DNA from: Nitrospirota bacterium
Lineage (GTDB): Bacteria; Nitrospirota; UBA9217
DNA: 64,000 nt
Direction of reading: 5' to 3'
Assembly: GCA_963737155.1 (NCBI GenBank)
Contig: CAVTRN010000001.1
Span: forward strand, 672,001 to 736,000
In this document: positions 1,177 to 34,102 of the stretch, one piece after another
Layout of the letters: each line of letters begins with the position of its first letter
Position numbering within the stretch: position 1 is the first letter of the stretch
Program-made: the position numbers and the translations under genes
Notes under the pieces: model-generated
What the model was told of the DNA's origin: nothing
Database searches by the model: none
Seen by the model: the letters and a program-made list of their open reading frames with translations, nothing else

Positions 1177-1839
1177 TTATCCTAGGGGCAATGCATCACT
1201 GGCGATAGGAAGCTTAGTTGCCGGTTCACCGATGAATACGCTTTTATCTTCTATAGTTTCGAGTATAATCGCTCCTGCACCAATCACGCATTCTTTTCCG
1301 ATTGATACTTTATTCCTTATCGTTGCGTTTGCACCTAAGTAGGAACCCGAGCCGATATCCACGCTTCCCGCAACAGATACCCCGGGCGAAAAGAAACAAT
1401 GATCGCCGATGGTAACATCGTGAGCTATCATACAACCATTTGCTATAATTACATTGCTCCCAATCTTTGCGTCAGGAGAAACTACAGTATAATGACCAAT
1501 AATACAGTTATCTCCAATTGCGGTTTCAGGCTGTATAATTGAATGAGGGCTTATAAAATTTATCAAATTATAACCCATTTCTTTTGATCGAAAGTACCTC
1601 TCTTTCCTTATTTTGTTATTATGCACGTAACCAACTGCTATCAACATTCTATGCCCATCCGGCGGGAATGCAGATTCAACAGTATCAAACGGTAAAATGG
1701 GCAGATTACAAAGACTGTCGGATTCCAAATATTCTCTGTCTACGGTAAAACCCACTACCTCGTAATGAGAATAATTTTTAAGGTAAAAAAAGGATTCTCG
1801 AGCCATAGATTTATTTCCATAAATTACAACTTTTTCCAT
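1177..1839 (-). CDS. NeuD/PglD-type left-handed beta-helix sugar acyltransferase (copy 2)
   Basis: N-terminal Rossmann-like VVIYG, IAVGY...R motif, hexapeptide repeats, candidate catalytic His in IAHD; start MEKVV after GAGAGGAG RBS. Confidence 0.9.
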   Translation of the reverse strand: MEKVVIYGNKSMARESFFYLKNYSHYEVVGFTVDREYLESDSLCNLPILPFDTVESAFPPDGHRMLIAVGYVHNNKIRKERYFRSKEMGYNLINFISPHSIIQPETAIGDNCIIGHYTVVSPDAKIGSNVIIANGCMIAHDVTIGDHCFFSPGVSVAGSVDIGSGSYLGANATIRNKVSIGKECVIGAGAIILETIEDKSVFIGEPATKLPIASDALPLG

Positions 1840-1904
1840 GTACAATTCTCCTCTCGAAGTCCGTGTCAAATACCGCCGTCCGGTTCTGCGTAATTAATCA
1901 GAAA

Positions 1905-4505
1905 TTAAGAAGAGGTATCTATTATCTTGTAAACATTTTCCAAATCAACCTTTTCTTTCTTTGCATTTATAAATTCGGCCTTATGAGCTTTAGCTTTTTC
2001 GATTAACAAAGCTAACTTTGACACCGTCCGTTCTTGAAAAATTACACTTAAAGGGATTTTTATTTTGAAAGTCTGATTGATTTTTGCTATTAAATTTGCA
2101 CTACTAAGTAAATTACCACCTAACTCAAAAAAATCATCGTTTACGCCAATTATTTCTAATTGAAGCACTGTCTGCCAGATGTTAGTGACTGTGCGCTCTA
2201 TCTCCATTCGTACCGCTAAATGAGCGGTTTCTAATTCCGGCCGGAGGTCATCAGGCAACGGTAGGGAAAGGCGGTCTATCTTACCACTTCGTGTCAAAGG
2301 AAACTTCTCCAATATCACGAAAGCATTCGGCACCATGTTCTCCGGTATCTTCATTCTCAAATAATCACGCAATGCGCTCAAGGAGGGAATCTCTCCATCA
2401 TTCAGAACTAGATAAACCACTAACTGCTTGTCTCCATTAGCATCTCCTGTGACTACCGCAACCCCCTTCCGAACGTTTGGATACTGGTCAAGCATCTCCT
2501 CGATCCGCCGAATATTCTCGCTTGTACCCGTAACTTCTGTCAAAAAATCGGCCAAATCGGAAATGGTAGAGCATTCAAACAGGGTCTGGATTGGTAGATC
2601 AAGATTGTAGACATCCCGGATATGCGACACAGCCTTAATCGCCAGTAATGAATGCCCACCCAAATCAAAAAAACTGTCGTTGATCCCGATATTCTCTACT
2701 TTTAGCAATTCGGTCCAAATGGCAGCGAGGGCCTTTTCGGTTTCCGTGTGTGGCCTGACGAAATCGTGGGAGGCTGCGAGATTATCGGAAGTGGGCGCCG
2801 GCAGAGATTTTCGATCAATCTTTCCGTTCGATGTGAGCGGCAGCCGGTCCAGCCTGATAAAATAGGGGGGGAGCATGTAAGCGGGCAATTCCTGGGCGAG
2901 GTGGGCGCGCAGCTCCGCCGCGTTCAACGACTTCTCGCTCACATAATATGCGACCAGCCTATTGATACTCATCTCACCAGTTTTCGACGGCTCAGCGCTG
3001 TCCGCCATTTGTTTGCTGTCCCAGCCAACTACATCGACTACACACTCGCGAACGTCGGCGTGTTTCAGGAGACGGGCCTCGATCTCCCCCAGCTCAATGC
3101 GTACGCCGCCAACTTTCACCTGATTATCAACGCGTCCCAGGAATTCCATGCTTCCCTTGGCGTTCCATCGAGCGAGATCTCCAGTCTTGTAGAGGCGCAA
3201 CAACGCTGACCCAATGACTGATGATTTTGCTGCCGGCAAATTTTGTCTCGGGTCCTTCGCCGTTACGAATTTCTCCTCGGTGAGCTCTGGCCGATTGACG
3301 TAGCCGCGGGCCAATCCATCCCCTGCTATGCACATCTCGCCTATGTCGCCAATGGGCACAGGGTTGAGGTTCTCGTCGAGAATAAAGATGCAGGTATTGG
3401 CAGCAGGATTTCCAATGGGGACCGAAGGGGCGAGATCGTTCTCTCTATCATAACGGTGAATCATGCAACCGACGGTGGCCTCCGTGGGGCCGTACTCGTT
3501 GTATATCTCCACCGGGTAGCCGGCGTTGCGAGTGATATCGCTTGCCAGCTCAGTCTTGAAATCCTCGCCGCCGACGATGAACTTGCGAATCTTGGTGGCA
3601 CTCGAGACCATCCCTTTTATCATGGCAAGGTGAGCTGGCGTCAGCTTCACGATGTCAGCCACGTTGTCCTCAATAACTTTGAAAATCACCGTGCCGTGCA
3701 CACCCGGGTCTTCATGATAGACGACAATGCGGCCACCGGAAATAAGGGGCGTGAATATCGATGTTACCGTGAGATCAAATGCAAGAGAGGAAAACAATGG
3801 CCAGGTCAGCCGTTCACCCCTGCAGTACTTCTCGTTCGCCCACCAGATGTAATTCACCAAGCTACGGTGCTCGATCATAACGCCCTTGGGCGTGCCTGTG
3901 GAGCCGGAAGTGTAGATAACGTAGGCGAGATTGTTTGGGGACACGGGAAACCGTGGATTTGTGACCGGATATTGCCCGATCGAAGCGAAGTCGGCATCCA
4001 ACGTTATCACTCGCGCTATGCCGTCCGGAAGGTCCCTCGCAAAACTCGATTGGGTCACCAACACGGGCATAGTTCCCGCAAGTCCTTTTGCAATATCCTG
4101 CAATATGAAGACAAGGCGCTCTTTCGGGGTGTTAATATCAATAGGCACATATGCAGCACCAGCCTTAAGCACTCCGAGCATTGAGCAAACAACCTCGATT
4201 GAGTTTCCCATGTACAGGGCGACGAGTTGATCCGCATCGGTGCCGAGTGTGCGGAGTTTCACTGCCATCTGATTCGCGCGGTCGTTCAGCTCACGATACG
4301 TCAACCCTTGATCGCCAGAATGGATGGCCTCATCCTCTGGCGTGCGCTCTACCTGGGCTTCAAAGAGTTCAACTATTGTTTTGTCTGCGGGATATGGCGC
4401 CGCAGACTTGTTGTATTCGATAACCAGCGACTGATACCCGCGCTCCAACTGAGGGGCTAACGAATCGATGGGCCGATCGATCACGTAGTCTTTTTCATTG
4501 CTCAT
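1905..4505 (-). CDS. NRPS-like protein: A(Asn code)-PCP-orphan A C-terminal subdomain-PCP lacking the attachment Ser
   Basis: YTSGSTGTPKG, YGPTE, YKTGD, NGKIDR motifs; first carrier LGGHSL; then IRRIEEML...GKIDRLSLP and a carrier with LGGNLL. Confidence 0.9.
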   Translation of the reverse strand: MSNEKDYVIDRPIDSLAPQLERGYQSLVIEYNKSAAPYPADKTIVELFEAQVERTPEDEAIHSGDQGLTYRELNDRANQMAVKLRTLGTDADQLVALYMGNSIEVVCSMLGVLKAGAAYVPIDINTPKERLVFILQDIAKGLAGTMPVLVTQSSFARDLPDGIARVITLDADFASIGQYPVTNPRFPVSPNNLAYVIYTSGSTGTPKGVMIEHRSLVNYIWWANEKYCRGERLTWPLFSSLAFDLTVTSIFTPLISGGRIVVYHEDPGVHGTVIFKVIEDNVADIVKLTPAHLAMIKGMVSSATKIRKFIVGGEDFKTELASDITRNAGYPVEIYNEYGPTEATVGCMIHRYDRENDLAPSVPIGNPAANTCIFILDENLNPVPIGDIGEMCIAGDGLARGYVNRPELTEEKFVTAKDPRQNLPAAKSSVIGSALLRLYKTGDLARWNAKGSMEFLGRVDNQVKVGGVRIELGEIEARLLKHADVRECVVDVVGWDSKQMADSAEPSKTGEMSINRLVAYYVSEKSLNAAELRAHLAQELPAYMLPPYFIRLDRLPLTSNGKIDRKSLPAPTSDNLAASHDFVRPHTETEKALAAIWTELLKVENIGINDSFFDLGGHSLLAIKAVSHIRDVYNLDLPIQTLFECSTISDLADFLTEVTGTSENIRRIEEMLDQYPNVRKGVAVVTGDANGDKQLVVYLVLNDGEIPSLSALRDYLRMKIPENMVPNAFVILEKFPLTRSGKIDRLSLPLPDDLRPELETAHLAVRMEIERTVTNIWQTVLQLEIIGVNDDFFELGGNLLSSANLIAKINQTFKIKIPLSVIFQERTVSKLALLIEKAKAHKAEFINAKKEKVDLENVYKIIDTSS

Positions 4506-4510
4506 ATGCT
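2632..4510. repeat. Near-identical 1.88-kb direct repeat, copy 1 (A domain plus start of PCP)
   Basis: Matches 13113..14991 at offset 10481 with about seven substitutions seen by eye. Confidence 0.97.
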
Positions 4511-4704
4511 ATTCTCATCTATTTCTTTATTTATCTGTGTAGCTGGATTGAGAGAAGAGTGCACAACTGACATATCACCTTGAGCCTTATTATATTATGA
4601 AGAAAAATACACCTAAACCCGTCTATCTGCCTACGATTCTTGAGCGTACTTTAGCGGGTTTTGGTTGATAAAGTTTCGCGTTCGATAAAAATCATTTCTT
4701 GAAT

Positions 4705-5505
4705 TCAAGTTATCCCCCATCGCCAGCACTTTAATTCTAATAAATTGCTATTTACAGCAAAAGCGCCTATATAATTAATGGCAGGCTTCAAACTTTGAAT
4801 CGACCATCGGGAAGCCTTTCTTGCGTCGCCTTCAGTTCCGATTAGCTCAGATGATTCCCCCGGGATCAATGATACATCAAATTTGTCTAGGGGCCGAGAC
4901 AAGCCTTCTCCGAGTGCTTTTACAATAGCCTCCTTGCAAGTCCAGCCTTTAAAGAAAGCTTCTCTCTTCTGGCTCTGAGGAAGCGCACGAAAAGCCTCTT
5001 TTTCTTTAATAGAAAAGAAACGTTCAACAATCTGTTCCATCTCAGACATGTCATGAACGTATTCAATGTCCACACCTATTTCATGGTTTCGAGCGAAGGC
5101 AAAAAGGGCAGCTCCATTTGAATGGGAAAGGTTAAAATGAATAGTGCGTCTCACGAATGGCCCTGCAATCTCAGGCTTTCCGTTTTCCCCCTGATTAAAC
5201 CGCAATTTGTCTGCTTGAACGCTCAGGTAACGTCCCAGAATCGTTCTCAGAATGCCATGTCTGGAGATGAACCACTTCCTGTCTTTCTGAAAATAAAACC
5301 GGTCAGCCCTCATTCTTTCATCAATGGAGAGTGTCTGCATAAACCTGTGCAATTCGGCGTCTGTTTGATCAAGGACAACAAACCAAATGTGGATTTCGTC
5401 ATCTGTCAATTTTAAGTCCAGAGGCGGAATTTCAAACGGAGGACAAAGATTTGTTAAATATTCGACTTCGGCGCTGGAATGTGTGTGTCCGATTTCAATG
5501 ACCAT
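4705..5505 (-). CDS. Sfp-type 4'-phosphopantetheinyl transferase
   Basis: GKP, FNLSHS, IGVDIE and WTCKEAIVKALGEG motifs; start uncertain (the ORF is open to 5661). Confidence 0.92.
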   Translation of the reverse strand: MVIEIGHTHSSAEVEYLTNLCPPFEIPPLDLKLTDDEIHIWFVVLDQTDAELHRFMQTLSIDERMRADRFYFQKDRKWFISRHGILRTILGRYLSVQADKLRFNQGENGKPEIAGPFVRRTIHFNLSHSNGAALFAFARNHEIGVDIEYVHDMSEMEQIVERFFSIKEKEAFRALPQSQKREAFFKGWTCKEAIVKALGEGLSRPLDKFDVSLIPGESSELIGTEGDARKASRWSIQSLKPAINYIGAFAVNSNLLELKCWRWGIT

Positions 5506-5879
5506 AATTTTCACGATTTCAGCAATGCAGAACTTACACTTTTTGTTTTGCCCCTGTGCGATCCGTGACTCCCGAAGTTCGGTAACTTCGAGTCTTTGAG
5601 CTCTCGTCCGCACTTTCCGGTCTAAACGCTTGGCGTTGGGGCTAGCCAAAACTTGGTTCACCAGATTCTTTATGATGAAAGCTCAGAATAATCTCGCAGA
5701 CGGTTTCAACATTGGATAAGATAGACTACCGTAAATCAATAGTGGCGATTTGCAATCCGCTTTTATGACACTGCAATAACATTTTCTTCATGGCCGAGCC
5801 TCCTATTACCTTAGAGGTCAATCCGTTGAAATCGTTCAGGAGACTTTTTTATGGAGAACAGCGGTGAAACGACCACTTC

Positions 5880-6542
5880 TCATCCAAGGGGTAATTCATC
5901 GCTGAAAATATCAAGCTTAGTTGCCGGTTCACCAAGATATACGCTTCTATCTTCTATATTTTCAAGTATAATCGCTCCTGCACCGATAACGCATTCTTTC
6001 CCCAGCGATACCCTATTCCTTATTGTTGCATTTGTACCTAAGAAGCAACCTGACCCGACATTCACGCTTCCCGAGACAGACACGCTATTTGAAAAAAAGC
6101 AATGGTCGCCAATAACGACGTCGTGCGCTATCGCACAATTATTTCCGATAATTACATTATTCCCAATTTTAGCATCCGGCCCAATTACAGAGTAATGGCT
6201 GATAGTACAGTTATCCCCAATTTCTGTTCCGGGATGTACAATTGAATGAGGGCTTATATAATTTACCAGCGAATAGCCCATTTCCTTTGCCCGCAGGTAC
6301 CTATCTTTTCTTATATTGTTGTTCTGCACATAACCGACTGCTATCAACATTTTATGCCTGTTCGGCGGGTATACAGTTTCGATAACATCAAAAGGGATGA
6401 CGGGCAGTTGAAAAAGACTGTCCGATTCCAAATACTCTCTGTCTACGGTAAAACCGACGATCTTATAATCGGAATGTTGCTTTAGACCAAGGTAGATTTC
6501 TCGAGCCATAGATTTATTTCCAAAAATTATCACGTTCTCCAC
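5880..6542 (-). CDS. NeuD/PglD-type left-handed beta-helix sugar acyltransferase (copy 1)
   Basis: Paralog of 1177..1839; IAVGY, IAHD, hexapeptide repeats. Confidence 0.9.
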   Translation of the reverse strand: MENVIIFGNKSMAREIYLGLKQHSDYKIVGFTVDREYLESDSLFQLPVIPFDVIETVYPPNRHKMLIAVGYVQNNNIRKDRYLRAKEMGYSLVNYISPHSIVHPGTEIGDNCTISHYSVIGPDAKIGNNVIIGNNCAIAHDVVIGDHCFFSNSVSVSGSVNVGSGCFLGTNATIRNRVSLGKECVIGAGAIILENIEDRSVYLGEPATKLDIFSDELPLG

Positions 6543-6618
6543 GATTCAGCCATCCTTTCGAACTCACTGTCAAACACAGATCTTCGATGCTGTGCAATAA
6601 ATCAGCGATTAAGATAAT

Positions 6619-9600
6619 CTATCCTATCAAGTTAATAGCTTTTTTCAGGTCAGTCCTTTTTTTCTGCAAATTTATCAATTCCGCGTTAGGAATTTTGGAT
6701 TTTTCGACCAAATGAGCTAACTTCGCCACTGTTCGTTCTTGAAAGATTACCTTCATCGGTATATTGACATTGAAAGAATGATTAATCTTTGCTATTAAAT
6801 TCACGCTGCTAAGTGAACTCCCGCCTAAATCAAAAAAATTATCGTTTATGCCTATTTTTTCTAAATGAAGAACCTCCTGCCAGATGGCAGTAATTGTGTT
6901 CTCTATCTCCGTCCGTGAAGCGACGCAGACGGATTCTAATTCGGGGATGATACTCGTCGATACAGGTCCTGCCGCCACCCCTGGAGCAACAAAGACGGGT
7001 CCTAATTCGGAACAAATGCTCGTAGAATCAGGTAGAGCTTGGCGATCTACCTTGCCATTATTGCCAACTGACTCAATAAAAAAGCGCTTCCGCTCAAAGG
7101 GGTAGGTCGGCAAAGGGAGCCGATGGCGTCCCTCATCCGCATAAAATCCCGACCAGTCTATCTGAACTCCGGCGAGCCAGATCCGGCCAAGGGCGTTCAA
7201 AATAAAAGCCGAGTCGGATGTTACGTCTTTTGGATGATGGGTCGAGGCGAGCACAATGTGATCTTTCGTTTTGTTTTGCTGCAGATTTGCCAGCACCATG
7301 AATGTTTGACCCGGCCCAACCTCCAGGAGCACTCGATTGGGTTCTTTCATTAATTCATGCAAACAGTCAGAAAATCGCACGGTAGAGCGCATGTGCCTGG
7401 CCCAATAACCTGGGTCCACAGCTTCACCGGGTGTAATCCAGGTGCCGGTAACATTCGATAAAAAGGGAATTCGGGGCGGCTTTGGGCTGGCCTGTTTTAC
7501 TTTTTCACTAAATACCGATAAAATCGGTTCCATCATTTCCGAATGAAAGGCATGGGAAGTTTTCAAATATTGACAAGCAAGATTCCTAGCCATTAGCTGT
7601 TTTTTTAGATCTTCCAAAGGCTCTTTTTCACCGGAGACAACGCAAAGTGAAGGCCCATTGATGACGGCCAAGGAGAGTTTGCTGCCCAAATATGGCTGTA
7701 TCTCTTTCTCCGAAAGAGGGACGACAAGCATGGAACCGCCGGGAAGATCCTGGATGAGCCGGCCTCTCGCAGCTACAAGCGTCAGGGCATCCTTCAGGGA
7801 AAAAACCCCGGCCAGACAGGCAGCAACATATTCTCCGATGCTGTGCCCTACTAATGCTGCCGGCGTCACTCCCCACGACATCCACAATTTTGCAAGAGCA
7901 TATTCAATGGCGAACAAGGCGGGTTGGGTAATATAGGTTTGCATAAGCAACTGCCCTGACTTTTCCAGGCTATTCTCATTTGGATATAAAACATCTCGTA
8001 AATCGAAGGAAAGATAGGGGTGAAGAATATCTGAGCATTGATCGATCTGTTCTCGAAATACTAATTCTGTTTTATAAAGTTCCAGCCCCATGTTTACGTA
8101 TTGCGATCCTTGGCCGGAAAACATGAAGACGACATCCCGCTTGACAGGTTCCTGAAAGGATGTCAATACCCTCTCCGTATTTAGAGTTTCGAGGACAACG
8201 ACGGCATCGTGGATGTCTCGGCAAACAGCCATTCGACGATGATTGAAAACCTTCCGTTCCTTCTGAAGGGTGTACACAACATCTGCGAAGTCCACTTCAG
8301 GATGCTGCTTCAGGTGCTGAACAAGATTCTTCGTCACATTTTCTAAAGCGTTATTTGTCTTGGCCGAAAGAAGCAGCAGTTTCCATGGCCTGGATTTGCC
8401 CGAAGCCTCGATAACAGGAGCTTCCTCCACAATGACGTGCGCATTGGTGCCGCCTATCCCGAACGAACTGACACCCGCCCGCCGGGGAAACGCATCCGTC
8501 TTCCATTCTGAAAGCTGAGTATTGACATAGAAGGGACTCTGCGCGAAATCAATTTGAGGGTTCGGCTTTTCAAAGTGCAGGCTTGGGGGGATGCACCTGT
8601 TTTTGAGCATGAGGACGGTCTTGATCAATCCCGCTATCCCCGCAGCATTATCAGTATGGCCGATATTCGTTTTTACCGAGCCGATGGCGCAAAACCCTTT
8701 CTTTTGGGTGCCCGCTCGAAATGCCTGAGTAAGAGCGGCAATCTCAATGGGATCGCCCATGGCGGTGGCAGTCCCATGAGTTTCGATATAGGTGATAGAC
8801 TCGGGTTTGACCTCGGCCATCATTTGGGCCGTTCTGATGACCTTTGCCTGACCTTCGACAGAAGGCGCCGTGAAGCCAACCTTGAAAGAACCATCGTTAT
8901 TCAGTGCCGCACCTTTGATGACTGCATGAATGCAGTCTCCGTCGGCAAGCGCTTCTTCCAGCCTCTTTAAAACGACTATCCCCACGGCATTGCTAAAAAC
9001 GGTCCCCTGCGCGCTGGCGTCAAAGGCTTTGCAGTGCCCATCGGGAGAAAAAATCGCTCCATCCTGGTAAAGATACCCTACTTTTTTCGGAAAACTTATT
9101 GAGCTGGCGCCGGCCAAAGCCATATCACATTCCCCGCTCAGCAGGCTTTGACAGGCTTGACAAACAGCCACAAGAGACGTGGAACAGGCGGTTTGAACCA
9201 CAACGCTTGGCCCTCTCAGGTTCATTTTATAGGAGACACGGGTGGTCACAAAATCTTTATCATTGCCGATCATCATTTGGACCGAACCCACTGATTCCAT
9301 AAGGGCACGGTTTGGATAAAGATTATTCAAATAATAATTGTTCATGCCCACCCCCCCCCAAACGCCGATGAGGCCCTCATACCGTTCGGGGTTGTACCCG
9401 GCACTTTCCAATGCTTCCCAGGCGCACTCCAGGAAATGCCGGTGCTGTGGGTCCATGGTCTCTGCTTCCAGGGGAGTAAAGCCAAAGAAGGAGGCGTCAA
9501 ACAACTCTGTATCTTCCAATATCCCCTTGGCTTTTACATAATTGGGATCATGCAATAAAACAGGATCTATTCCAGAAGATTCCAATTCCTCAGCCGTGAA

Positions 9601-9738
9601 AAAAGAAATGGATTCCACGCCGTCGCGCAAATTTCTCCAATATTCATCGACGTTTTTGGCGCCGGGAAAACGGCCAGACATCCCGATAATGGCTATTTCC
9701 GAGCCATTCCTAGAGCTAGATGAAGAAGCGTTACTCAT
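6619..9738 (-). CDS. Type I PKS module KS-AT-carrier
   Basis: KS TACSTSLVA, HGTAT, NIGH; AT GHSIG and HAFH (malonyl-type); carrier LGGSSL. No KR, DH, ER or TE domain. Confidence 0.95.
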   Translation of the reverse strand: MSNASSSSSRNGSEIAIIGMSGRFPGAKNVDEYWRNLRDGVESISFFTAEELESSGIDPVLLHDPNYVKAKGILEDTELFDASFFGFTPLEAETMDPQHRHFLECAWEALESAGYNPERYEGLIGVWGGVGMNNYYLNNLYPNRALMESVGSVQMMIGNDKDFVTTRVSYKMNLRGPSVVVQTACSTSLVAVCQACQSLLSGECDMALAGASSISFPKKVGYLYQDGAIFSPDGHCKAFDASAQGTVFSNAVGIVVLKRLEEALADGDCIHAVIKGAALNNDGSFKVGFTAPSVEGQAKVIRTAQMMAEVKPESITYIETHGTATAMGDPIEIAALTQAFRAGTQKKGFCAIGSVKTNIGHTDNAAGIAGLIKTVLMLKNRCIPPSLHFEKPNPQIDFAQSPFYVNTQLSEWKTDAFPRRAGVSSFGIGGTNAHVIVEEAPVIEASGKSRPWKLLLLSAKTNNALENVTKNLVQHLKQHPEVDFADVVYTLQKERKVFNHRRMAVCRDIHDAVVVLETLNTERVLTSFQEPVKRDVVFMFSGQGSQYVNMGLELYKTELVFREQIDQCSDILHPYLSFDLRDVLYPNENSLEKSGQLLMQTYITQPALFAIEYALAKLWMSWGVTPAALVGHSIGEYVAACLAGVFSLKDALTLVAARGRLIQDLPGGSMLVVPLSEKEIQPYLGSKLSLAVINGPSLCVVSGEKEPLEDLKKQLMARNLACQYLKTSHAFHSEMMEPILSVFSEKVKQASPKPPRIPFLSNVTGTWITPGEAVDPGYWARHMRSTVRFSDCLHELMKEPNRVLLEVGPGQTFMVLANLQQNKTKDHIVLASTHHPKDVTSDSAFILNALGRIWLAGVQIDWSGFYADEGRHRLPLPTYPFERKRFFIESVGNNGKVDRQALPDSTSICSELGPVFVAPGVAAGPVSTSIIPELESVCVASRTEIENTITAIWQEVLHLEKIGINDNFFDLGGSSLSSVNLIAKINHSFNVNIPMKVIFQERTVAKLAHLVEKSKIPNAELINLQKKRTDLKKAINLIG

Positions 9739-14986: not shown

Positions 14987-14991
14987 ATGCT
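13113..14991. repeat. Near-identical 1.88-kb direct repeat, copy 2
   Basis: Matches 2632..4510. Confidence 0.97.
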
Positions 14992-15031
14992 GTTCTCCTC
15001 TTTCAGCCAACTGAAGACCATTTTCATAATT

Positions 15032-15916: not shown

Positions 15917-16215
15917 TCCCTAAGAGGAGCATAGTTTCGGTTCTGCTCCAGTACCAATGTCGATATATTCGATTCGAAAAGAAGATTTGGATGAATGTAA
16001 ACTTTCAGAACCTGCCCGCATTCCTGTTATGTTCGTGAGTAGAAATTCTTTTGGTTGGTGAAGCGTAATCGCATGATGCTACTTTTTACCGTGTCGCTGG
16101 CCAGGCTCTCGGCATGATACATCTTGCAAGTCTGCAGATCCTGTCCGGGTGATCCCCCCGGCCGGGTCTCCCCGCCAATGTAAAGCTTGTGTCTCGAGTG
16201 CTTCTTCTTGTATAT

Positions 16216-17364: not shown

Positions 17365-17457
17365 TTTGAGACCTCTGCGCTGAAATTATAGCTATATATT
17401 TGACAATACAAGTACTGACGCACCTAGACTTTGCAGAATTTTCTTTACCGGCATGTT

Positions 17458-18306: not shown

Positions 18307-18467
18307 TTTTCCTTCACCGTCGATTTTTCTGAGAAGATTCTCCGAATTATCGGGAAAAGACGACCTCTCTTGCTGCCAGCATGGATACGAACAACATAAT
18401 GTTCAAAATTGTAGCCCGCTTGACCGTATGCCTCCGGCCGGTAAAGAAGAAGGGAACACGGCTGGCA

Positions 18468-27123: not shown

Positions 27124-28503
27124 TCAAAACGCTATGTTCACTTGCCCCGTGACCCTGTTGTTCCAATAATTGTCGTCGTACGCGGTCGGGGCAGGGGCAT
27201 ATGCATTCGAATAATCGTATTCCAATGCTAGGGTCAGATTCTTCAATACCGTGTGTTCGAACCTCAGGTGGTTTAAATACACGGTTTGGTTGACGTCGTT
27301 CTGATATACGAGTTGGTTGATGTAGATCGGATATTCGCGAAGGTACAGGACTGAAACGCCAACGTCGATCTTTGACGTCGGCGAGAGCGCGTAGTTTATC
27401 GACCCGGAGAGTGAGTAGGCGCTATCCTCGAGGTAGGTTTTTTCCGCGTTTCGGTACTCAGTGAAGCCACCAGAAACCAGCATCGTCATCCTTGGCGTCG
27501 CCTTTTTTAAGGTTGCGATGTAACTTTCCGTCATTCTCACGACTTCGACCGGGTCGGGAATGTAGCTTAACGCTGTATCGAACGAAAGGGTAATCGTTGA
27601 GTATTGATGTGTGATTCCCGCATTCCAGAATGGACGGCTGGTTTGCTCTCTGGTTTGCCCTGTCATGTCGAAGTCGAAAAAACTATTTCCCAGGCTGATG
27701 TAAACGTATGAGTTTGGAGCGAAGGTATAACTAGGACCGGTGAATACATCGAGCTCATCGAACGTAACAAAGCTATTCATGTTCTGCGTATAACGTACGC
27801 CGGTGGTTAAGGTTGCCTCTGACGAGAGCTCCGTCCTCAACTCTACAGATCCCGTCTGCGTGATTGAATCAATGGCATTTTCCGGCAGCCCGAGCGTAGT
27901 GATGACAGTGGGCTGCTTGTACCATGTGTCGACATACAGATAGCCAAGTACAGCAGTGGTGCTATCAGTGATTTTTCTGATTATATAAGGATTGACGGTA
28001 AAAACATTCGTGTCTGTTTGGTTTACAACCTGGCTTTCCAGCGTATAGTCTCGTGCGGTATTGAGCGATACTCTGCTGTATGTATCCTTCAGCGTAACGT
28101 ATAACGTATTGTCAATCAACTCCATCTTGTTTGTGACGTTCGCCGTTTGCGTTGAGTCGTTCGTTATCTTGTCCTGGGAGTAGTACCGGTAAATATAGGC
28201 ATAATCTAGGTTCCAGTCCCAGAAGCCGGTCTCGTAGACAAGCTTTACGGAAGGGATGGCCTGTGACACGAAATCCTGCTGTCTGTCCGTAGGCGTCAGA
28301 AAGAGGTTGTCGGTGTATTCTTCGCTCATCGAAAGCCCAGTCTGTATGTTGAAGAGCGCACCGGAGGCACGATGAGGCGGCATCGCGAGTACGAGCAGAA
28401 ATCCCGCAATCGTCAGAACGATAATGCGGAACGGCAGTGTACAGATGGCCAAAGCGTTAGGTTTTTTTTGATGCACCGTCATTCTCTCCGCCATCGGCGG
28501 CAT
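27124..28503 (-). CDS. Outer-membrane beta-barrel of XrtA/PEP-CTERM-type EPS loci (TIGR03016-like)
   Basis: Signal peptide, SEEYTDNLFL...DF motif, alternating beta strands, C-terminal Phe; start uncertain. Confidence 0.8.
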   Translation of the reverse strand: MPPMAERMTVHQKKPNALAICTLPFRIIVLTIAGFLLVLAMPPHRASGALFNIQTGLSMSEEYTDNLFLTPTDRQQDFVSQAIPSVKLVYETGFWDWNLDYAYIYRYYSQDKITNDSTQTANVTNKMELIDNTLYVTLKDTYSRVSLNTARDYTLESQVVNQTDTNVFTVNPYIIRKITDSTTAVLGYLYVDTWYKQPTVITTLGLPENAIDSITQTGSVELRTELSSEATLTTGVRYTQNMNSFVTFDELDVFTGPSYTFAPNSYVYISLGNSFFDFDMTGQTREQTSRPFWNAGITHQYSTITLSFDTALSYIPDPVEVVRMTESYIATLKKATPRMTMLVSGGFTEYRNAEKTYLEDSAYSLSGSINYALSPTSKIDVGVSVLYLREYPIYINQLVYQNDVNQTVYLNHLRFEHTVLKNLTLALEYDYSNAYAPAPTAYDDNYWNNRVTGQVNIAF

Positions 28504-29359
28504 TCGCCGCGTCTGCTGTTACCGACGAGCCGTATCGGTAATAATACGAGTATCGGCCCTGCGAGGGATAAATCAACACATCGTTGAATACCGTGCCCAG
28601 AATGGTGTGGTCTTTTACGAGCGAGAGTGCCTGTGTCGCAGTCTTCGGATCGGTAACCCCGGCACGTGTGACAAAGATTACACCGTCGACGTAATTACAA
28701 AGCGATATGCTGTCAGCCGTCAGGAGGAGCGGTGAAGAGTCGATGATAATGTACCGGTCCCGGTACCGCTCCTTGAGCTCTAAGACCAAGTCCCGCATCC
28801 GTTCCGAGGCAATAAGCTCCGCCGGGTTCTCCACCGGATTCCCCGCCGGCATGACAACAAGCTTGCCGATTCCGGTCTTGACCAGGACATCGGGCAGCTT
28901 CGCCTGGGACGACAGATAATCACTGAGGCCCCGCTGTGGCTGCAAACCAAGATATGTGTGAATGGTCGGTTTTCTCAAATCGGCATCCACGAGAAGCACA
29001 GTATGGTCAAGTTCATGCGCAATGGCGACTGCCAGGTTTATGGCGGTTATGCTCTTTCCCTCGCCACCCTGAGCGCTCGTTATCATAATCGTATTCTGGA
29101 AATCCTTTTCCGTTGCCCGCAGCACTCTCGCGCGGAGTTTCCGGTATTCCTCTGCAGCGTGTGAATAGGGGTCCGTTATTGTGACGACGTGCGGATTCAC
29201 CGCGTCTCTGTTTACTCCTCCATCACGGACTTCGAAGACCGACGGGTCGTACAAAGTGGATGAAGCGGTCCGTGTGGACATAATATCGCTACGGTCATTC
29301 TCCGCATTGCCTCCCCGTGTCTTTGCAGCCCGTTCCAATGCTCGTGTTATCCTACTCAT
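28457..29359 (-). CDS. Polysaccharide-associated tyrosine autokinase (CpsD/CapB; Wzc C-terminal part)
   Basis: EEYRKLR, Walker A GGEGKS, LLVDADLRKP, IIIDSSP, Tyr cluster YPSQGRYSYYYRY. Confidence 0.93.
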   Translation of the reverse strand: MSRITRALERAAKTRGGNAENDRSDIMSTRTASSTLYDPSVFEVRDGGVNRDAVNPHVVTITDPYSHAAEEYRKLRARVLRATEKDFQNTIMITSAQGGEGKSITAINLAVAIAHELDHTVLLVDADLRKPTIHTYLGLQPQRGLSDYLSSQAKLPDVLVKTGIGKLVVMPAGNPVENPAELIASERMRDLVLELKERYRDRYIIIDSSPLLLTADSISLCNYVDGVIFVTRAGVTDPKTATQALSLVKDHTILGTVFNDVLIYPSQGRYSYYYRYGSSVTADAANAADGGENDGASKKT

Positions 29360-29371
29360 TGCGTTCCCCCA

Positions 29372-30928
29372 CTAAATATGCATGATGGTAATTCCCGCAT
29401 ACCGATAAAGCACCTCTCCTACGAACACAATTCCTATGAGGCTAAGATAGGCGATCGCGGCTGTATATATTTTCTTGTCGAGCTTCGCCTCGGCCTGGAC
29501 ATCCGCTTCAGTGACGATGCTTGGTATCGTTGCCAGGACGGGAAGCTTCAGCACATCTCGGACGGTTTCTTCTTCCTTGAACGAATGATCGAGTTTGTCA
29601 AGACCTACCGCCGACCCAACACCTGCGGCTATTCCGAGCACAATGCCGACAAGAATCAGGATGACCCTATTCGGACTGACAGGAACGACAGGCATGCTTG
29701 GCGGATCAAAAATGCGAAAATTCATGGTTTTGTCTGTGTTCTCCAGGTTCTTCGAAACCCTTGCGCCTTCTCGTTTCTGTAGGAGATCATCGTAGACCTT
29801 CTGATAGGTGCTCTGGTCCTGCTGCAGCTTCTTCCATTCCTCTTGCTCCTTCGGCATTTGCCCCAGCATCGAGCGCTCCTCGCTCTGCTGATTCGCTAAC
29901 TCACTCAGTCGAGCCTTAAGAGAGTCGATTTCGGTATCGGTTTTCAACAAGTCCTCTTTTATCTGTTGATAAGCGGGGTTGAGCGCCTTCATTTCACTCC
30001 CGGCGCCGTCGCCCGCCGAGTTCTCCGGGTCGGTTTTTGTTGATTGTGACCGCCGCTTCTGGATCTCCCTTATTTCGTTCCTCACCTTGATCACTTCGGG
30101 ATAATCTTCCGTATATTTGGTCAACAGGAGTGTGAGCTCGTTATTGAGTTGATCCAGCCGCCCTGCCGTCATTTCTTTTTCGCCGGAAAGCTGTTTTTGA
30201 AGGTTTTCTCGTCTTCTCTGAAGTTCCTTCAACTCGATCGTGGCGTTTATTTGAGCGGTCTGATAGTTTTCTATTCGCCCCACGATCGTGCCGTCATTCT
30301 GCGGGATCATATTCGGGTGCTTTGCTCGAAATTCCTGGATCGCCTTATCCGTATCGTCAATCTGTTTCTTGTAGAGGGACAGTTGATCATCTATGAAATT
30401 GTAGGCCCCGATTGCTTCCGACCGCTGAAGCCCGGCATTTTCACTGATCAATTCTTTCACAAGTACGTCAACGAAATTCATGACGCCCTTCGGGTCGCGT
30501 CCGCGGTATGCAACTGTGAAATAATCTTGACCCGGCGGCAATCCAACACTTCCGGCTCCTCCGATGGTTAATTTGAGATTTTTTTTGATTGTCGCTACCA
30601 ATCCGTTGTATTGAGCTTCATTTTTCGTGTATTTGTCGAGCCCAATTTTTTTGATAACCTGTTCGATGAAACTCCTGCTCATGATGGTATTTTGGATATA
30701 CAACAACCGATCTTCATCTTGTTTAGAAGTGTCACCCAATGGGTTGGAGATGCCGCTCTTGTCTATAATTATGTTGGAACTTGACTCATAGGTCTTTGGC
30801 CATATAAAACTCCCCCACGTAAGCAGAGATAGAATTCCAAGGGCGACAGAAATTACCAGATATCTCCTCTTTCGGATAATCCTGACATATTCATCGATAT
30901 CAAAAGTAGCCGAATTTTCTTCTTCCAA
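29372..30928 (-). CDS. Polysaccharide co-polymerase / chain-length determinant (GumC/Wzc N-terminal part)
   Basis: N-terminal TM + PKTYES, coiled coils, YTEDYPEV, FRIFDPPSMP..PVSPNR + TM helices. Confidence 0.9.
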   Translation of the reverse strand: MEEENSATFDIDEYVRIIRKRRYLVISVALGILSLLTWGSFIWPKTYESSSNIIIDKSGISNPLGDTSKQDEDRLLYIQNTIMSRSFIEQVIKKIGLDKYTKNEAQYNGLVATIKKNLKLTIGGAGSVGLPPGQDYFTVAYRGRDPKGVMNFVDVLVKELISENAGLQRSEAIGAYNFIDDQLSLYKKQIDDTDKAIQEFRAKHPNMIPQNDGTIVGRIENYQTAQINATIELKELQRRRENLQKQLSGEKEMTAGRLDQLNNELTLLLTKYTEDYPEVIKVRNEIREIQKRRSQSTKTDPENSAGDGAGSEMKALNPAYQQIKEDLLKTDTEIDSLKARLSELANQQSEERSMLGQMPKEQEEWKKLQQDQSTYQKVYDDLLQKREGARVSKNLENTDKTMNFRIFDPPSMPVVPVSPNRVILILVGIVLGIAAGVGSAVGLDKLDHSFKEEETVRDVLKLPVLATIPSIVTEADVQAEAKLDKKIYTAAIAYLSLIGIVFVGEVLYRYAGITIMHI

Positions 30929-30938
30929 TTCTACCTCC

Positions 30939-31802
30939 CTAGAAGATGCTGCTCTTCACTGTAATAATATCGCCGGGCTTCAGATTGACGTTTTTCTTGA
31001 GATTCCCGTTCATGACATCCTTTAATTCGACCTCGATGTTCTCCACCACATTCCCTTCCCTTCTAACGATCAGCACGTCATTCCTGCTGGCGAAGTCCGT
31101 AAATCCCCCTGCGCTTAACACGGCATCGAGTGCGGTCATTCCTTCGAAGTAGGGAATGAGGCTCGGCGTCTTGACAGCACCAATGACCCGGATACGGCTG
31201 CGTGGGCCGCCCGGCAGGTAAATGAGGTCGTTCGGTTCGAGCTCGACGTCACGCGAAACATCCCCCTTTGCGACCAATTGCTCAAAATCTATGTTCAGCT
31301 TTTTTCCCTTTCTCATCAGATAGGCATCAGCAAAATTTACCTCACCCAGGGAGCCGAACTGCGTAAGAAGTTGCAGCAAGGTTGTGTGCCTTCGTAACGT
31401 CATCTGGCCGCCCTGGCTGCCGCCTTGGCCACCGCCTTGGCCGCCGCCTTGGCCGCCTGCCTGCGTCCCAGAAACACCATCTCCAAAAACATAGACCTTG
31501 AAGCTGTTGATCGCCGTGACCATGACACTGACGACCGGCGCTTTAATAAACCGAGCTAGATTTTTTTCCAGGGTCCTTTTTAGCTCTTGGGGAGTAAGTC
31601 CGGACGCTTGCACGTCTCCCACGAGCGGCATGGAGATCATCCCATCGGGTCGCACCGGAACGGTCACACCTAGTTCAGGATTTCCCCAGACGGATATCTG
31701 GAGCATGTCCTCGTCTCCAATTACATATTCTTCGGCGTATACAGATCCGATGGCGGCGAACAGTAGTGCAGAAATAATCAATAAATATATGCTTTTTTTC
31801 AT
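30939..31802 (-). CDS. Short periplasmic OPX (Wza-like) polysaccharide export protein with SLBB domains
   Basis: YVIGDED.LQISVW, VRPDGMISMPLVG, SLBB motifs; no lipobox Cys and no C-terminal OM helix. Confidence 0.92.
   Translation of the reverse strand: MKKSIYLLIISALLFAAIGSVYAEEYVIGDEDMLQISVWGNPELGVTVPVRPDGMISMPLVGDVQASGLTPQELKRTLEKNLARFIKAPVVSVMVTAINSFKVYVFGDGVSGTQAGGQGGGQGGGQGGSQGGQMTLRRHTTLLQLLTQFGSLGEVNFADAYLMRKGKKLNIDFEQLVAKGDVSRDVELEPNDLIYLPGGPRSRIRVIGAVKTPSLIPYFEGMTALDAVLSAGGFTDFASRNDVLIVRREGNVVENIEVELKDVMNGNLKKNVNLKPGDIITVKSSIF
31404..31457. repeat. 12-bp tandem repeat encoding GGQG units
   Basis: Repeated CCGCCTTGG/CCGCCCTGG units; protein GGQGGGQGGGQGGSQGGQ. Confidence 0.85.
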
Positions 31803-32050: not shown

Positions 32051-32719
32051 TTACAAGGCATTGACATCATGCGGCGCAATTTTCACCGCAACACTTCTTC
32101 CGAGGATATTCACGTTAACGACAAATACAAACTCGTCTATCTTCCTAATCAAAACACCTTCTGCGTTTATCAGCGGACCCCTGGTAACGCGGACTTTCGC
32201 TCCTTCTTTCAGCCCTGGGTAGACGTCAATGTCTATGCCGCTCCCGATCAGAAGCCTCAGAGAATCAATCTCATTGGAATCAACCTTTGCAGGCGATCCC
32301 GGTTCAAGAGTGACGAAACCCGCAATACCCCGCGTTTTGAGGACTTCAACGAAGGCCCCGGGAAAGGCCGGCACATGGACAAAAACATATCCCGGAAACA
32401 GCGGAAACTCAACGAGTTTTTTTCTATCTTTCCATTGTCTTAGTTTCTGTATGGACGGCGCAAAAACCTCAATCTCTTTCCGCACGAGTTCGCCGGCGGC
32501 AACAAATTCGTGTCTCGATTTCACATGGACAGCGTACCAGTTCAGTACCCCGCCTGTCGCCAGCCCATGGTTATTGCCATCCGCATGGGCCGTGGGATTA
32601 ACTGCAGTCTCAATCACGTCACGCCCCTCCATCGTAGTAATACTGCTTTTGTTCCGTCTTCGCTGCTCGGTTCCGCTGCCAAGGGGTTGCCGCCGAACCT
32701 GTCGGTCCTCCTTGCTCAT
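32051..32719 (-). CDS. NusG-paralog transcription antiterminator (UpxY/LoaP-like)
   Basis: WYAVHVKSRHE, PLFPGYVFV, KOW motif VRVTRGPL..AEG; start uncertain. Confidence 0.92.
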   Translation of the reverse strand: MSKEDRQVRRQPLGSGTEQRRRNKSSITTMEGRDVIETAVNPTAHADGNNHGLATGGVLNWYAVHVKSRHEFVAAGELVRKEIEVFAPSIQKLRQWKDRKKLVEFPLFPGYVFVHVPAFPGAFVEVLKTRGIAGFVTLEPGSPAKVDSNEIDSLRLLIGSGIDIDVYPGLKEGAKVRVTRGPLINAEGVLIRKIDEFVFVVNVNILGRSVAVKIAPHDVNAL

Positions 32720-33615
32720 TGCTTGTGTTCCTCTATTCCCAGTGCGCTCAGGAGAGCAGTATGGTCGACGCTCGTCTTTGGCGCCGTACTCTTTCCGCCC
32801 CAGTAAAGCGTCTCAAAGTCGAGGTCATTCGCGACTTCGTTAACCATGGTGGAGTCCACTTTCGTCGTTTCTTCATTAAATGCCGCAAGCAGCAGGAAAT
32901 CGCACAGTGTATTAATCAGCCTCGGTATTCCCTTGCAGTATTTATGGATGGCCTCAATGCTGCCGTTTACAAAGGTAACCGCATTTTTGTTGCCGGCGAC
33001 CTCCAGTCGGTGCTGGATGTAATTGAGGGTGTCGTCTTTGTCGAGAGGCTCGATGCTGCAGCTGATGCCGATCCTCTGTCGAAGCTGTCTCATGTTCGGG
33101 GCAGAAAGGATATCTCGCAACTCAGGTTGCCCAACAAGTAGTATCTGAAGGAGCTTCGACGTATTGGTTTCCAGGTTCGACAGCATCCGAATCTCTTCCA
33201 GAAGGTTGGACTTGAGGTTCTGGGCTTCATCGATGATGAGTACCGTGTTGCGCCGCCTCGTATGCTCTTCGATTAGAAATGCGTTGAGGTCTTTCAACAA
33301 CATGATTTTGTCCTTACCCTTGACGTCGAGACCGAAATCATCGTTGATCATAGCGAAAAGCTGCTCCGAGCTTACGTTGGTATTAAATATCCTGGCGATC
33401 GTCACATTATGTGCGAGTTGCCTGGTCAGATCGCTTATGAGTGTGGTCTTGCCCGATCCAACTTCTCCAGTCAGCAATATGAACCCCATGCCCTCTTGTA
33501 TGCCGTATTGGAGATAATTAATCGCTTTTTTATGCGTTTTACTTAAGTAAAGAAAAGCCGGGTTTGGAACTAGCTCAAAAGGCTTTAATTTCAATTTATA
33601 AAATGCTTCGTACAT
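32716..33615 (-). CDS. ExeA-like AAA ATPase of XrtA/PEP-CTERM-type loci
   Basis: MYEAFY.L..KPF...P, Walker A GEVGSGKT, IIDEAQ, LVGQPEL, GIPRLIN. Confidence 0.93.
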   Translation of the reverse strand: MYEAFYKLKLKPFELVPNPAFLYLSKTHKKAINYLQYGIQEGMGFILLTGEVGSGKTTLISDLTRQLAHNVTIARIFNTNVSSEQLFAMINDDFGLDVKGKDKIMLLKDLNAFLIEEHTRRRNTVLIIDEAQNLKSNLLEEIRMLSNLETNTSKLLQILLVGQPELRDILSAPNMRQLRQRIGISCSIEPLDKDDTLNYIQHRLEVAGNKNAVTFVNGSIEAIHKYCKGIPRLINTLCDFLLLAAFNEETTKVDSTMVNEVANDLDFETLYWGGKSTAPKTSVDHTALLSALGIEEHKQ

Positions 33616-33724
33616 GTAACGTTCCTTGTATATTCTATTTGAATTTAGCTATGCCAGTTTGTAAGCTGGGGAAAGATATAATATCCATTTTATATTCTTT
33701 AATCTGTCGGAAATGTGATGCAAA

Positions 33725-34102
33725 TTACAATTGTGCGCGCTGTTCTGATTCATTCATCGTCTGACTTACCAATGATCTGAACTTTTGATAATCGAGAGGT
33801 TTAAGCATACAGTGCGAAAGTGACTTATCAAAATGATCAAGTGTCGCCATCAATTCTAGGCTTAGATGATCTGACAAAATAATTATAGGGATTTTCCATT
33901 TTTTCACCTTTTCGAGCATAGACGCACCGTAGGGATAACTTGTAATTACAAGCCCAATGTTACTAAAATCAACCCATGAATCAAATTGATGGGCATCTGG
34001 AATGATATTTGTGCCGAACCCTTCGTTTTCCAGTATTGCAGAACAGATTCTTGAGAAGCCCGCTTCATCGATTATAAGTATTTTTTTCTTAGATATTTGC
34101 AT
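33725..34102 (-). CDS. Atypical receiver-like domain protein
   Basis: KILIIDE, LVITS, PIIILS, KPL pattern; the phosphoacceptor Asp is replaced. Confidence 0.7.
   Translation of the reverse strand: MQISKKKILIIDEAGFSRICSAILENEGFGTNIIPDAHQFDSWVDFSNIGLVITSYPYGASMLEKVKKWKIPIIILSDHLSLELMATLDHFDKSLSHCMLKPLDYQKFRSLVSQTMNESEQRAQL

Follow-up and report, generated by a model that had tools for sequence, protein, structure and literature searches.

Amino sugars that bear aminoacyl or ketide-like N-acyl groups are well documented in natural glycans, with N-acetylglycyl, N-(3-hydroxybutyryl)-alanyl, and 3,5-dihydroxyhexanoyl groups as examples (PMC3210612). Here, we analyze a window of 64,000 nucleotides (the whole stretch of DNA examined: positions 672,001 to 736,000 of contig CAVTRN010000001.1, assembly GCA_963737155.1) in which nonribosomal peptide synthetase (NRPS) and polyketide synthase (PKS) genes stand inside a surface-polysaccharide locus of the XrtA/PEP-CTERM type from a Nitrospirota-like soil bacterium. 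Two genes of this locus code for NeuD-type acyltransferases, NeuD1 and NeuD2. Judging from sequence comparisons, we give a probability of about 0.6 to the reading that these enzymes replace the thioesterase of the assembly line and move an Asn-Gly-ketide chain and asparagine onto an amino sugar.

The closest described proteins are PglD, VioB, PerB, and NeuD (TIGR03570), sugar N-acyltransferases with a left-handed β-helix (LbH). NeuD1 and NeuD2 both score above the cutoff of this family, a histidine of PglD is aligned, and DegT genes are neighbors in related genomes. The described members use acetyl-CoA. The subclade represented in the window is encoded directly behind NRPS or PKS genes that end in a carrier domain, and its nearest relatives lie beside an acyl carrier protein (ACP), acyl-CoA dehydrogenase (ACAD), and adenylating enzymes. 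LpxA and LpxD have the same fold and likewise acylate a UDP-amino sugar, or its hydroxyl group, with an acyl group taken from a carrier protein, but their donor is a fatty acyl-ACP from primary metabolism, they have no NRPS or PKS partner, and their N-terminal domain is different. Another precedent is provided by WcbR and RkpA, PKSs whose product is probably a lipid part. In Burkholderia and rhizobia, these type I enzymes are encoded among capsule synthesis and export genes (PMC3908369). Their likeness to the present locus is that of a type I PKS amid polysaccharide genes; in the pertinent section of the same source, the clusters are described with a single PKS and with no mention of NRPS modules or of a NeuD-type gene behind the carrier domain (PMC3908369). 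In the Dlt system (DltA, DltC), an adenylation (A)-type enzyme and a carrier likewise put an amino acid on a surface glycopolymer, and DltA models match the A domains of the window. The links formed by Dlt are esters, made by an MBOAT protein outside the membrane, whereas the assembly line of the window would form amides via a cytoplasmic LbH enzyme and contains a condensation (C) domain and a ketosynthase (KS). In butirosin biosynthesis (carrier BtrI, acyltransferase BtrH) and in the tetronate genes of Vibrio cholerae O1 (carrier, ligase, hexapeptide transferase), a carrier-bound acyl or aminoacyl chain is built and then moved to an amino-sugar nitrogen. Stand-alone enzymes do this work there, in contrast to the modular NRPS-PKS of the window, and BtrH is not an LbH protein. 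The exosortase A-associated set (TIGR03098 ligase, carrier, TIGR03100/03101 hydrolases) belongs to the same type of locus, and a related cassette in a sister species (G010, described below) ends in hydrolases. The window has NeuD proteins where G010 has hydrolases, and its TIGR03098 and TIGR03100 scores are below the cutoffs. Carrier-dependent sugar acylation by LbH enzymes and PKS genes in capsule loci are already known kinds. A literature search, with most subscription journals outside its scope, returned no paper that joins an NRPS or PKS with NeuD/PglD-type release or with PEP-CTERM loci.

The assembly line and its proposed release enzymes comprise the following features (T, carrier domain; AT, acyltransferase).

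9731 to 15010, minus strand: NRPS1, A1(Asn-like)-T1-C-A2(Gly-like)-T2 from Pfam/NCBIfam domains; likely start codon ATG at 14986
6619 to 9738, minus strand: PKS, KS-AT-T3 from domain matches, without ketoreductase (KR), dehydratase, enoylreductase, or thioesterase (TE) domain; a C-terminal tail of ~25 residues follows T3
5880 to 6542, minus strand: NeuD1, NeuD/PglB/VioB-family LbH sugar N-acyltransferase, proposed to off-load T3 (TIGR03570, 187.8 bits, cutoff 160.8)
4705 to 5661, minus strand: Sfp/HetI-type 4'-phosphopantetheinyl transferase (PPTase; ACPS and AASDHPPT_N domains; HetI model 1.1e-70, below cutoff)
1905 to 4505, minus strand: NRPS2, A1'(Asn-like)-T1'-lone C-terminal A subdomain remnant-T2'-tail from domain matches; T2' without the pantetheine serine
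1177 to 1869, minus strand: NeuD2, second NeuD-family acyltransferase (TIGR03570, 195.5 bits, cutoff 160.8), 71% identical to NeuD1
13031 to 15001, no strand assigned: direct repeat copy 1 (A1-T1), 1971 nt, 98.1% identical to 2550 to 4520 with 37 mismatches and no gaps
2550 to 4520, no strand assigned: direct repeat copy 2 (A1'-T1' of NRPS2), beginning 15 nt before the start codon and ending in the carrier domain
5882 to 6916, no strand assigned: older repeat unit of T3, tail, and NeuD1, 75.7% identical over 1035 nt to 1179 to 2211 (T2', tail, and NeuD2)

Every megasynthase gene is an open frame with intact catalytic motifs. T1 and T2 of NRPS1 keep the GGxS carrier serine, and T3 of the PKS retains its carrier serine. 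By eye, the C domain of NRPS1 keeps HHxxxD, and the PKS has the Cys/His/His residues of a KS as well as the GHSxG and HAFH motifs of an AT, the latter presumably reflecting the use of malonyl units. We extracted ten specificity residues for each A domain. A1 and the A domain of NRPS2 gave an identical read-out, which we take to be Asn-like, and that of A2 to be Gly-like, each agreeing at 9/10 positions with published codes. A Pfam search of the three megasynthases returned no Thioesterase, NAD_binding_4, or second Condensation match, which leaves them without a terminal release domain. An initial annotation of the window, made from the DNA letters alone, had noted the absence of TE and reductase (R) domains and of any small-molecule exporter or resistance gene. 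We fetched and scanned another 40 kb to the left and can confirm the first absence for the three megasynthases and this flank, and the second for the window and this flank. The scanned flank includes the region just past the left edge, where the annotation had considered that a TE or an exporter might lie; neither is there, and this objection does not refute its proposal.

NeuD1 and NeuD2 match TIGR03570 from profile position 1 to 201 of 202. NeuD1 aligns with PglD of Campylobacter jejuni (E 1e-22), and His140, which is invariant in 10/10 aligned sequences, falls opposite the histidine of the PglD IEH motif, in our understanding the catalytic His125. LpxA and LpxD, which are acyl-ACP-dependent, are among the solved relatives of NeuD1 (E 7e-20 to 8e-18). 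For this NeuD clade, we infer a carrier-bound donor. A short C-terminal tail behind the carrier is common to the megasynthases that precede NeuD, and the end of NRPS1, which precedes the PKS, differs from it. In the older repeat, terminal carrier, tail, and NeuD gene were duplicated as one unit.

Since the 1971-nt repeat is nearly identical, NRPS2 starts as a near-copy of NRPS1. This repeat points to a recent duplication or to gene conversion that would keep one Asn-like A domain in both NRPS genes; its mismatches are concentrated toward the carrier-domain end. In T2', leucine occupies the position of the carrier serine. The serine-less motif recurs in 4/4 members of the NRPS2 family (the window protein and three protein clusters with 56-62% identity), and therefore the unusual design of NRPS2 is conserved and not debris. 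A more distant protein (38%) has kept the serine.

Scanning metagenomes with a NeuD alignment, we kept 80 loci, of which 76 had a scannable upstream gene and 4 had no upstream sequence. Seven of the 80 NeuD proteins are 57-73% identical to NeuD1, and the others reach at most 49%. In this high tier (at least 57%), a megasynthase gene ends directly upstream of NeuD in 6/6 assessable loci. Five of these ends are PP-binding domains (after AT in L137 and L143, after KR in L142, and in NRPS2-like proteins in L138 and L139) and one is a condensation domain (L141); L138 and L139 are near-copies, so that five distinct cases remain. The gene orders are NRPS-PKS-NeuD-Wzx in L137, with a Wzx 72% identical to that of the window, PKS-NeuD-PPTase-Wzx-GT2 in L143, and NRPS2-like-NeuD-GT2-EamA-YfhO-PIG-L in L138. 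DegT follows NeuD in L142, while L140 continues with a transposase and then a chain-length determinant. We take the A-domain code to be Ser-like in L137 and partly Asp-like in L139. The initial annotation had made its proposal depend on whether homologous megasynthase clusters occur together with glycan genes, and pairs of a homologous megasynthase and NeuD are indeed found with such genes, so that this condition does not refute it.

In a quick maximum-likelihood tree, both window NeuDs and those of L137-L143 form a 9-row clade (SH-aLRT 98), nested in a 41-row clade (96) that holds every locus in which ACAD was seen. Eight of the nine rows lie behind a megasynthase, and the ninth begins at a contig end. 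A separate arrangement was observed in the sister group of the 9-row clade, where a metagenome contig (L145:1-8817) codes for a KR-ACP-sulfotransferase-C-A-T megasynthase and, behind it, for a glycosyltransferase, NeuD, DegT, and another NeuD.

The NRPS and PKS genes of the window are flanked by glycan genes on both sides, since an export set and a priming transferase lie upstream and iron-sulfur (FeS) oxidoreductase, electron transfer flavoprotein (ETF), GT-C, DegT, Wzx, and GT2 genes lie downstream. To place this arrangement, we used a set of 401 genomes of the phylum and fetched 18 loci around NeuD homologs. The nearest relatives of NeuD1 in this set are 37-44% identical, and 48 genomes give a match at E<=1e-20. 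In L119, from the same family, the flanks are conserved: repeat protein, polyprenyl-phosphate glycosylphosphotransferase (PGT, 50%), GFO oxidoreductase (71%), LbH acetyltransferase (73%), FeS oxidoreductase (73%), ETF (77-81%), and Wzx (73%). Between these flanks, L119 contains DegT, DegT, NeuD, ACAD, an adenylating ligase, and an amidohydrolase. ACAD is present in 7/18 NeuD loci, 3 of these with a carrier protein of 83-84 residues, and several of the remaining contigs end at NeuD. Two of the 18 loci include stand-alone adenylation enzymes above the A-domain cutoff and one includes FkbH-ACP-ACAD. Individual orders are NeuD-GNAT-ACP-ACAD-GT-C in L124, NeuD-GNAT-ACP-ACAD with a stand-alone A-type enzyme farther along in L125, and NeuD-FkbH-ACP-ACAD-A-type enzyme in a glycan locus of G397 (L127:5133-10666). 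In polyketide pathways, the combination of FkbH-like protein, ACP, and ACAD supplies hydroxymalonyl- or glyceryl-ACP as extender units. Because the loci of relatives hold these simpler cassettes, we conclude that the glycan locus is conserved around an acyl-donor slot of variable content, which the NRPS-PKS occupies in the window. In the sister species G010, of the same genus (L086:1-3362, on a 7.4-kb contig), the order is PPTase-ACAD (84%)-YbaK-fold protein (82%)-A(Asn-like)-T. The A-T protein there carries a weak alpha/beta-hydrolase region as a fusion, and the next gene codes for a hydr1_PEP-like hydrolase in place of NeuD. This hydrolase-like end is a second way of ending the same starter module.

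The initial annotation had proposed that the megasynthase product is not a secreted metabolite but an acyl substituent of a glycan sugar. The glycan flanks on both sides, the equivalent slot in relatives, and the NeuD clade behind NRPS/PKS genes are comparative evidence that favors this view. A mechanism along these lines would start with the Sfp-type PPTase priming the carriers, after which NRPS1 would load and join asparagine and glycine, and KS-AT-T would add one malonyl unit to give an Asn-Gly-beta-ketoacyl thioester on T3. NeuD1, a PglD/VioB-like enzyme, might dock on T3 and its C-terminal tail and release the chain by aminolysis, with the amine of a nucleotide-linked amino sugar as the acceptor. 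This sugar would be supplied by the neighboring dehydrogenase and DegT enzymes, and NeuD1 would thus do the job of the missing thioesterase. NRPS2 would load asparagine on T1', with serine-less T2' and tail as a possible adaptor that recruits NeuD2, and NeuD2 could then attach asparagine either to another amino group or to another sugar. The ACAD may oxidize a carrier-bound intermediate and deliver electrons via ETF to the membrane FeS oxidoreductase; GNAT may cap a free amine, and the YbaK-fold protein may edit or hydrolyze an aminoacyl intermediate. The acylated sugar would finally enter a glycan by way of glycosyltransferases, Wzx, an ArnT-like GT-C, and the Wza/Wzc export set.

Several points weigh against release onto a sugar by NeuD. 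The support consists throughout of synteny, phylogeny, and motifs. The acyl chain formed on T3 would keep an unreduced beta-keto group. Identity between the window ACAD and those of the simpler cassettes is just 33-36%, and there is no specific support for the role proposed for it. In the 37-49% tier of the metagenome scan, a carrier domain is present in just 2/70 upstream genes (L153, whose upstream frame runs off the contig, and L157), while 3 code for adenylating enzymes and the remainder for DegT, WbqC, FemAB, GT2, methyltransferase, ABC, and similar proteins; the coupling is a property of one subclade and not of the NeuD family. Tree rows were labeled according to the same feature that was then counted, near-copies were included, and the tree comes from a quick search, the careful one being unfinished. 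In one of the DegT genes, DegT2 (L001:11011-12145, G000:C1 ~663.0-664.1 kb), a frameshift near codon 78 (~663.9 kb), close to a short G/C run, breaks the coding sequence in two. This frameshift may be a sequencing or assembly error, or a real lesion that damages the acceptor pathway. In the latter case, it would fit with a subcluster that is decaying or inactive, the product of a recent rearrangement with an internally deleted NRPS2, a dead carrier, and a broken aminotransferase. The second module of NRPS2 indeed has no C domain and no A core, T2' has no serine, and the 98% identity of the 1971-nt repeat signals recent recombination. Yet the architecture of NRPS2, including serine-less T2', is kept as open frames in the three other protein clusters, the megasynthases of the window are open and intact, and a ~95% identical relative in a run from another study covers 29/30 bins of window positions 1-19000. 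We consider decay very unlikely.

The two further points against our reading concern the enzymes themselves. Characterized NeuD, PglD, VioB, and PerB enzymes take acyl-CoA, and among 79 loci of the nearest relatives of the PKS (45-64% identity; mostly cyanobacterial and acidobacterial assembly-line modules) a search of the surrounding 10 kb for NeuD-like genes gave no match at E<=1e-10. For this reason, the PKS was dropped in favor of NeuD as the anchor of the synteny search, and we conclude that the PKS was recruited from ordinary assembly lines; the distinctive features of the locus are the NeuD clade and the carrier tail, not the megasynthase modules. Both points would suit NeuDs that are ordinary acetyl-CoA-dependent sugar N-acetyltransferases, next to an NRPS-PKS island in a permissive locus whose free or lipid-bound product is released, for example, by spontaneous cyclization, by an enzyme encoded elsewhere, or by hydrolysis through the YbaK-fold protein, a member of a deacylase fold. 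This explanation seems improbable to us in view of the two NeuD copies that each follow a carrier-ended megasynthase, the duplication of carrier, tail, and NeuD as a unit, the megasynthase found directly upstream in every assessable close relative, the absence of TE, exporter, and resistance genes from the window and the 40 kb to its left, and the occurrence of the YbaK-fold family at the end of glycan operons without an NRPS (G034 and G350). NeuDs might also off-load the chains onto an acceptor other than a nucleotide sugar of the exported polysaccharide. Such an acceptor could be a non-sugar amine, or the chain could follow an Arn-like route: a 4-amino sugar, once acylated, would be placed on undecaprenyl phosphate and then transferred by the ArnT-like GT-C to lipid A/lipopolysaccharide or protein. 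A PMT_2-like GT-C that is 63% identical to that of the window is equivalently placed beside NeuD-GNAT-ACP-ACAD in L123 and L124, the genes GT2-EamA-YfhO follow NeuD in L138, the best NCBIfam match of Wzx is an O-glycosylation flippase model (below its cutoff), and a UDP-4-keto-pentose synthase gene lies ~38 kb left of the window start. This synthase is, however, encoded on the opposite strand past regulatory genes, and the entire set shares one minus-strand run with the Wza/Wzc export genes. We regard a different acceptor as rather unlikely, and release onto an amino sugar of the exported glycan remains the reading that we favor.

A broader proposal is more tentative, and we would put it somewhat short of even odds. 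A clade of NeuD/PglD-type proteins may serve as the release enzymes of NRPS/PKS lines, docking on carrier plus tail or on a serine-less pseudo-carrier and writing peptide-ketide chains onto amino sugars. Soil bacteria would then possess hidden, non-ribosomally decorated surface glycans, and the aminoacyl and ketide N-acyl groups that O-antigen chemistry has left unexplained would have their genetic origin in the variable acyl-donor slot, whose contents range from ligase plus ACP plus ACAD to a complete NRPS-PKS. If this is true, assembly lines have a new ending, release onto a sugar by an LbH transferase instead of a thioesterase, and peptide- or ketide-like N-acyl groups on bacterial amino sugars, which are mostly without assigned biosynthetic genes, gain a genetic basis. 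It would also join "NRPS/PKS" and "saccharide" clusters, which genome-mining tools keep apart, and such clusters, when scored as orphan metabolite clusters, may not make any free metabolite. Engineering of glycan decoration would gain three parts, namely the T-domain tail, the pseudo-carrier adaptor, and the NeuD clade.

Three accessory genes lie between the glycan genes and NRPS1.

17458 to 18306, minus strand: GNAT with an N-terminal extension of ~110 residues (Acetyltransf_3)
16216 to 17364, minus strand: ACAD-family flavoprotein with three ACAD domains
15032 to 15916, minus strand: 294-residue protein of a family without a name, with a YbaK/ProX-like deacylase fold and an extra domain (AlphaFold and Foldseek)

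The nearest solved relatives of the GNAT protein are amine N-acetyltransferases (SpeG and AAC(6') chains, E 9e-11 to 2e-9). The best NCBIfam matches of the ACAD are an AcrC-like model (1.6e-87) and prolyl-PCP dehydrogenase models (7e-62), all below their cutoffs, and we infer that it acts on a carrier-bound acyl group. The 294-residue protein has no Pfam or NCBIfam match, tRNA_edit being absent even at E 0.01, and its family profile gave 0 matches among PDB sequences. All 153 homologs in a large protein collection are annotated merely as "hypothetical protein"; those with a named source come from Nitrospirota, Vicinamibacterales, and Firmicutes. An AlphaFold model based on 32 sequences (pLDDT 82.3) was compared by Foldseek, and the top matches were the YbaK/ProX aminoacyl-tRNA deacylases 1wdv, 2cx5, and 1dbx (E 7e-6 to 1e-5; TM 0.68-0.76 on the target over ~175 of 292 residues), with 17 PDB matches at E<=0.001. 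Given these structural matches in the absence of a Pfam or NCBIfam match, the label "YbaK-like" in the initial annotation applies to the fold and not to the sequence family. The family occurs in 4/401 genomes of the phylum including this one, always behind an adenylate-forming enzyme inside a glycan locus. This enzyme is an NRPS A domain here and in G010, and a PaaK-like ligase in G034 and G350. In the latter two (L087:416-4576 and L220:6892-10916), an AsnB-like amidotransferase, a PaaK/F390-synthetase-like ligase, and then the YbaK-fold gene close a Wzx/Wzy operon, a trio that is without a described function.

The right part of the locus contains the export set, a surface protein, and priming genes.

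33725 to 34102, minus strand: 125-residue open reading frame (ORF), first gene of the run, without Pfam or NCBIfam match
32716 to 33615, minus strand: XrtA/PEP-CTERM system-associated ATPase (TIGR03015, 385.7 bits, cutoff 324.5)
32051 to 32719, minus strand: UpxY-family NusG paralog, putative antiterminator (NF033644, 110.6 bits, cutoff 100; NusG N-terminal domain)
30939 to 31802, minus strand: OPX/Wza-type outer-membrane polysaccharide export protein (TIGR03027, 216 bits, cutoff 180; Poly_export and SLBB)
29372 to 30928, minus strand: chain-length determinant (TIGR03007, 365.5 bits, cutoff 278.85)
28457 to 29359, minus strand: XrtA-associated tyrosine autokinase (TIGR03018, 243.9 bits, cutoff 230.65)
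27124 to 28503, minus strand: PEP-CTERM system-associated outer-membrane protein (TIGR03016, 130.8 bits, cutoff 90.85)
21831 to 27041, minus strand: 1736-residue repeat protein (Big_5, Flg_new_2) with a signal peptide and a lipobox-like N-terminus by eye
21226 to 21729, minus strand: 167-residue ORF of no family, similar to the N-terminal portion of priming transferases in relatives
19989 to 21158, minus strand: PGT, the priming transferase (Bac_transf 2.5e-66; TIGR03025 291.3 bits, just below the cutoff of 295.55)
18944 to 19945, minus strand: GFO/IDH/MocA oxidoreductase, UDP-GlcNAc 3-dehydrogenase-like (NF040723 1.2e-52, below cutoff)
18468 to 18989, minus strand: short LbH (hexapeptide) acetyltransferase (Hexapep 2.3e-20)

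The hallmark set of XrtA/PEP-CTERM exopolysaccharide loci (TIGR03015, 03027, 03007, 03018, 03016) is complete, with all members above curated cutoffs. Exosortase is encoded elsewhere in the genome, with three PF09721 matches above the cutoff (best at C2:2680360-2681121) and none in this locus. The NusG paralog scores above the cutoff of the UpxY model and below those of the RfaH and LoaP models; that it drives one long operon is an assumption. The GFO oxidoreductase and the LbH acetyltransferase are 65-75% and 71-82% identical to their equivalents in relatives.

From 34102 to 1, the ORFs form a consecutive run on the minus strand, with Pfam or NCBIfam matches on 22. On the plus strand of the same region, 0/30 ORFs of at least 100 residues have a Pfam match at E<=1e-3. 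These scans agree with the initial annotation both in the common strand and in the gene order that it gave from the antiterminator to the second sugar acyltransferase, and they add the TIGR03015 ATPase and the ORFs of 125 and 167 residues. Together with ~27 kb left of the window, the locus measures about 60 kb. The run is preceded by 1.5 kb of AT-rich DNA (34102-35620; GC 0.38 vs ~0.50) without an ORF of at least 90 residues, which is likely the promoter and leader region where the NusG paralog would act. An Rfam scan of the whole window returned tRNA-Val only, and nothing in this leader (34.1-35.6 kb). Promoter and terminator scans gave about as many hits as shuffled sequence (28 vs 20.2±4.9 and 17 vs 18.9±3.8), and the terminator scan found no strong minus-strand terminator in the intergenic gaps of the run. 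DNA contigs from soil runs map to the window in short pieces of up to 1.7 kb. One of them (X2 record 9) spans the junction of FeS oxidoreductase and NeuD2; the other gene junctions are unbridged by the pieces listed.

The leftmost gene of the window continues past its edge:

1 to 1122, minus strand: membrane FeS oxidoreductase, N-terminal part (heme-b-type/nitrate-reductase-gamma-like membrane part, 4Fe-4S, CCG), continuing to the left and followed by ETF beta and ETF alpha

Farther left on the minus strand are a 532-residue PMT_2-like GT-C, a second GFO oxidoreductase, a PssD/PssE-type glycosyltransferase, and two DegT aminotransferases, and then a FemAB-like GNAT, the Wzx flippase, four GT2, a weak Wzy_C-like membrane protein, and a Glyco_tranf_2_5-like gene. 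Beyond these genes come RmlA, a nucleotide-sugar dehydrogenase, and a sensor kinase accompanied by a sigma-54 activator. The best model for DegT2 is a 4-aminotransferase (DesI-like, below cutoff), and the protein is 72-82% identical across relatives, where its gene mostly adjoins NeuD. The keto-pentose gene mentioned above codes for a UDP-4-keto-pentose/UDP-xylose synthase (L002:947-2050; G000:C1:632947-634050, plus strand; 590 bits, cutoff 294). In combination with the ArnT-like GT-C and the DegT genes, this synthase is a hint of an Arn-like 4-aminopentose route.

Two ORFs of the right part showed further peculiarities. Matches of the 167-residue ORF (21226-21729) in a tblastn search are the N-terminal part of the PGT matches in L119, L120, L121, L129, and L131, and the ORF looks like a split-off or duplicated non-catalytic domain of the priming transferase. 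The 1736-residue surface protein has homologs at the equivalent position in the relatives L119, L121, and L123. We rejected it as a PEP-CTERM substrate, since by eye its C-terminus is without such a motif. The protein consists of long, near-identical repeats, and its gene contains terminator-like strings at 22505, 22952, and 23399 (plus strand) and at 23041 and 23488 (minus strand) with a period of 447 nt.

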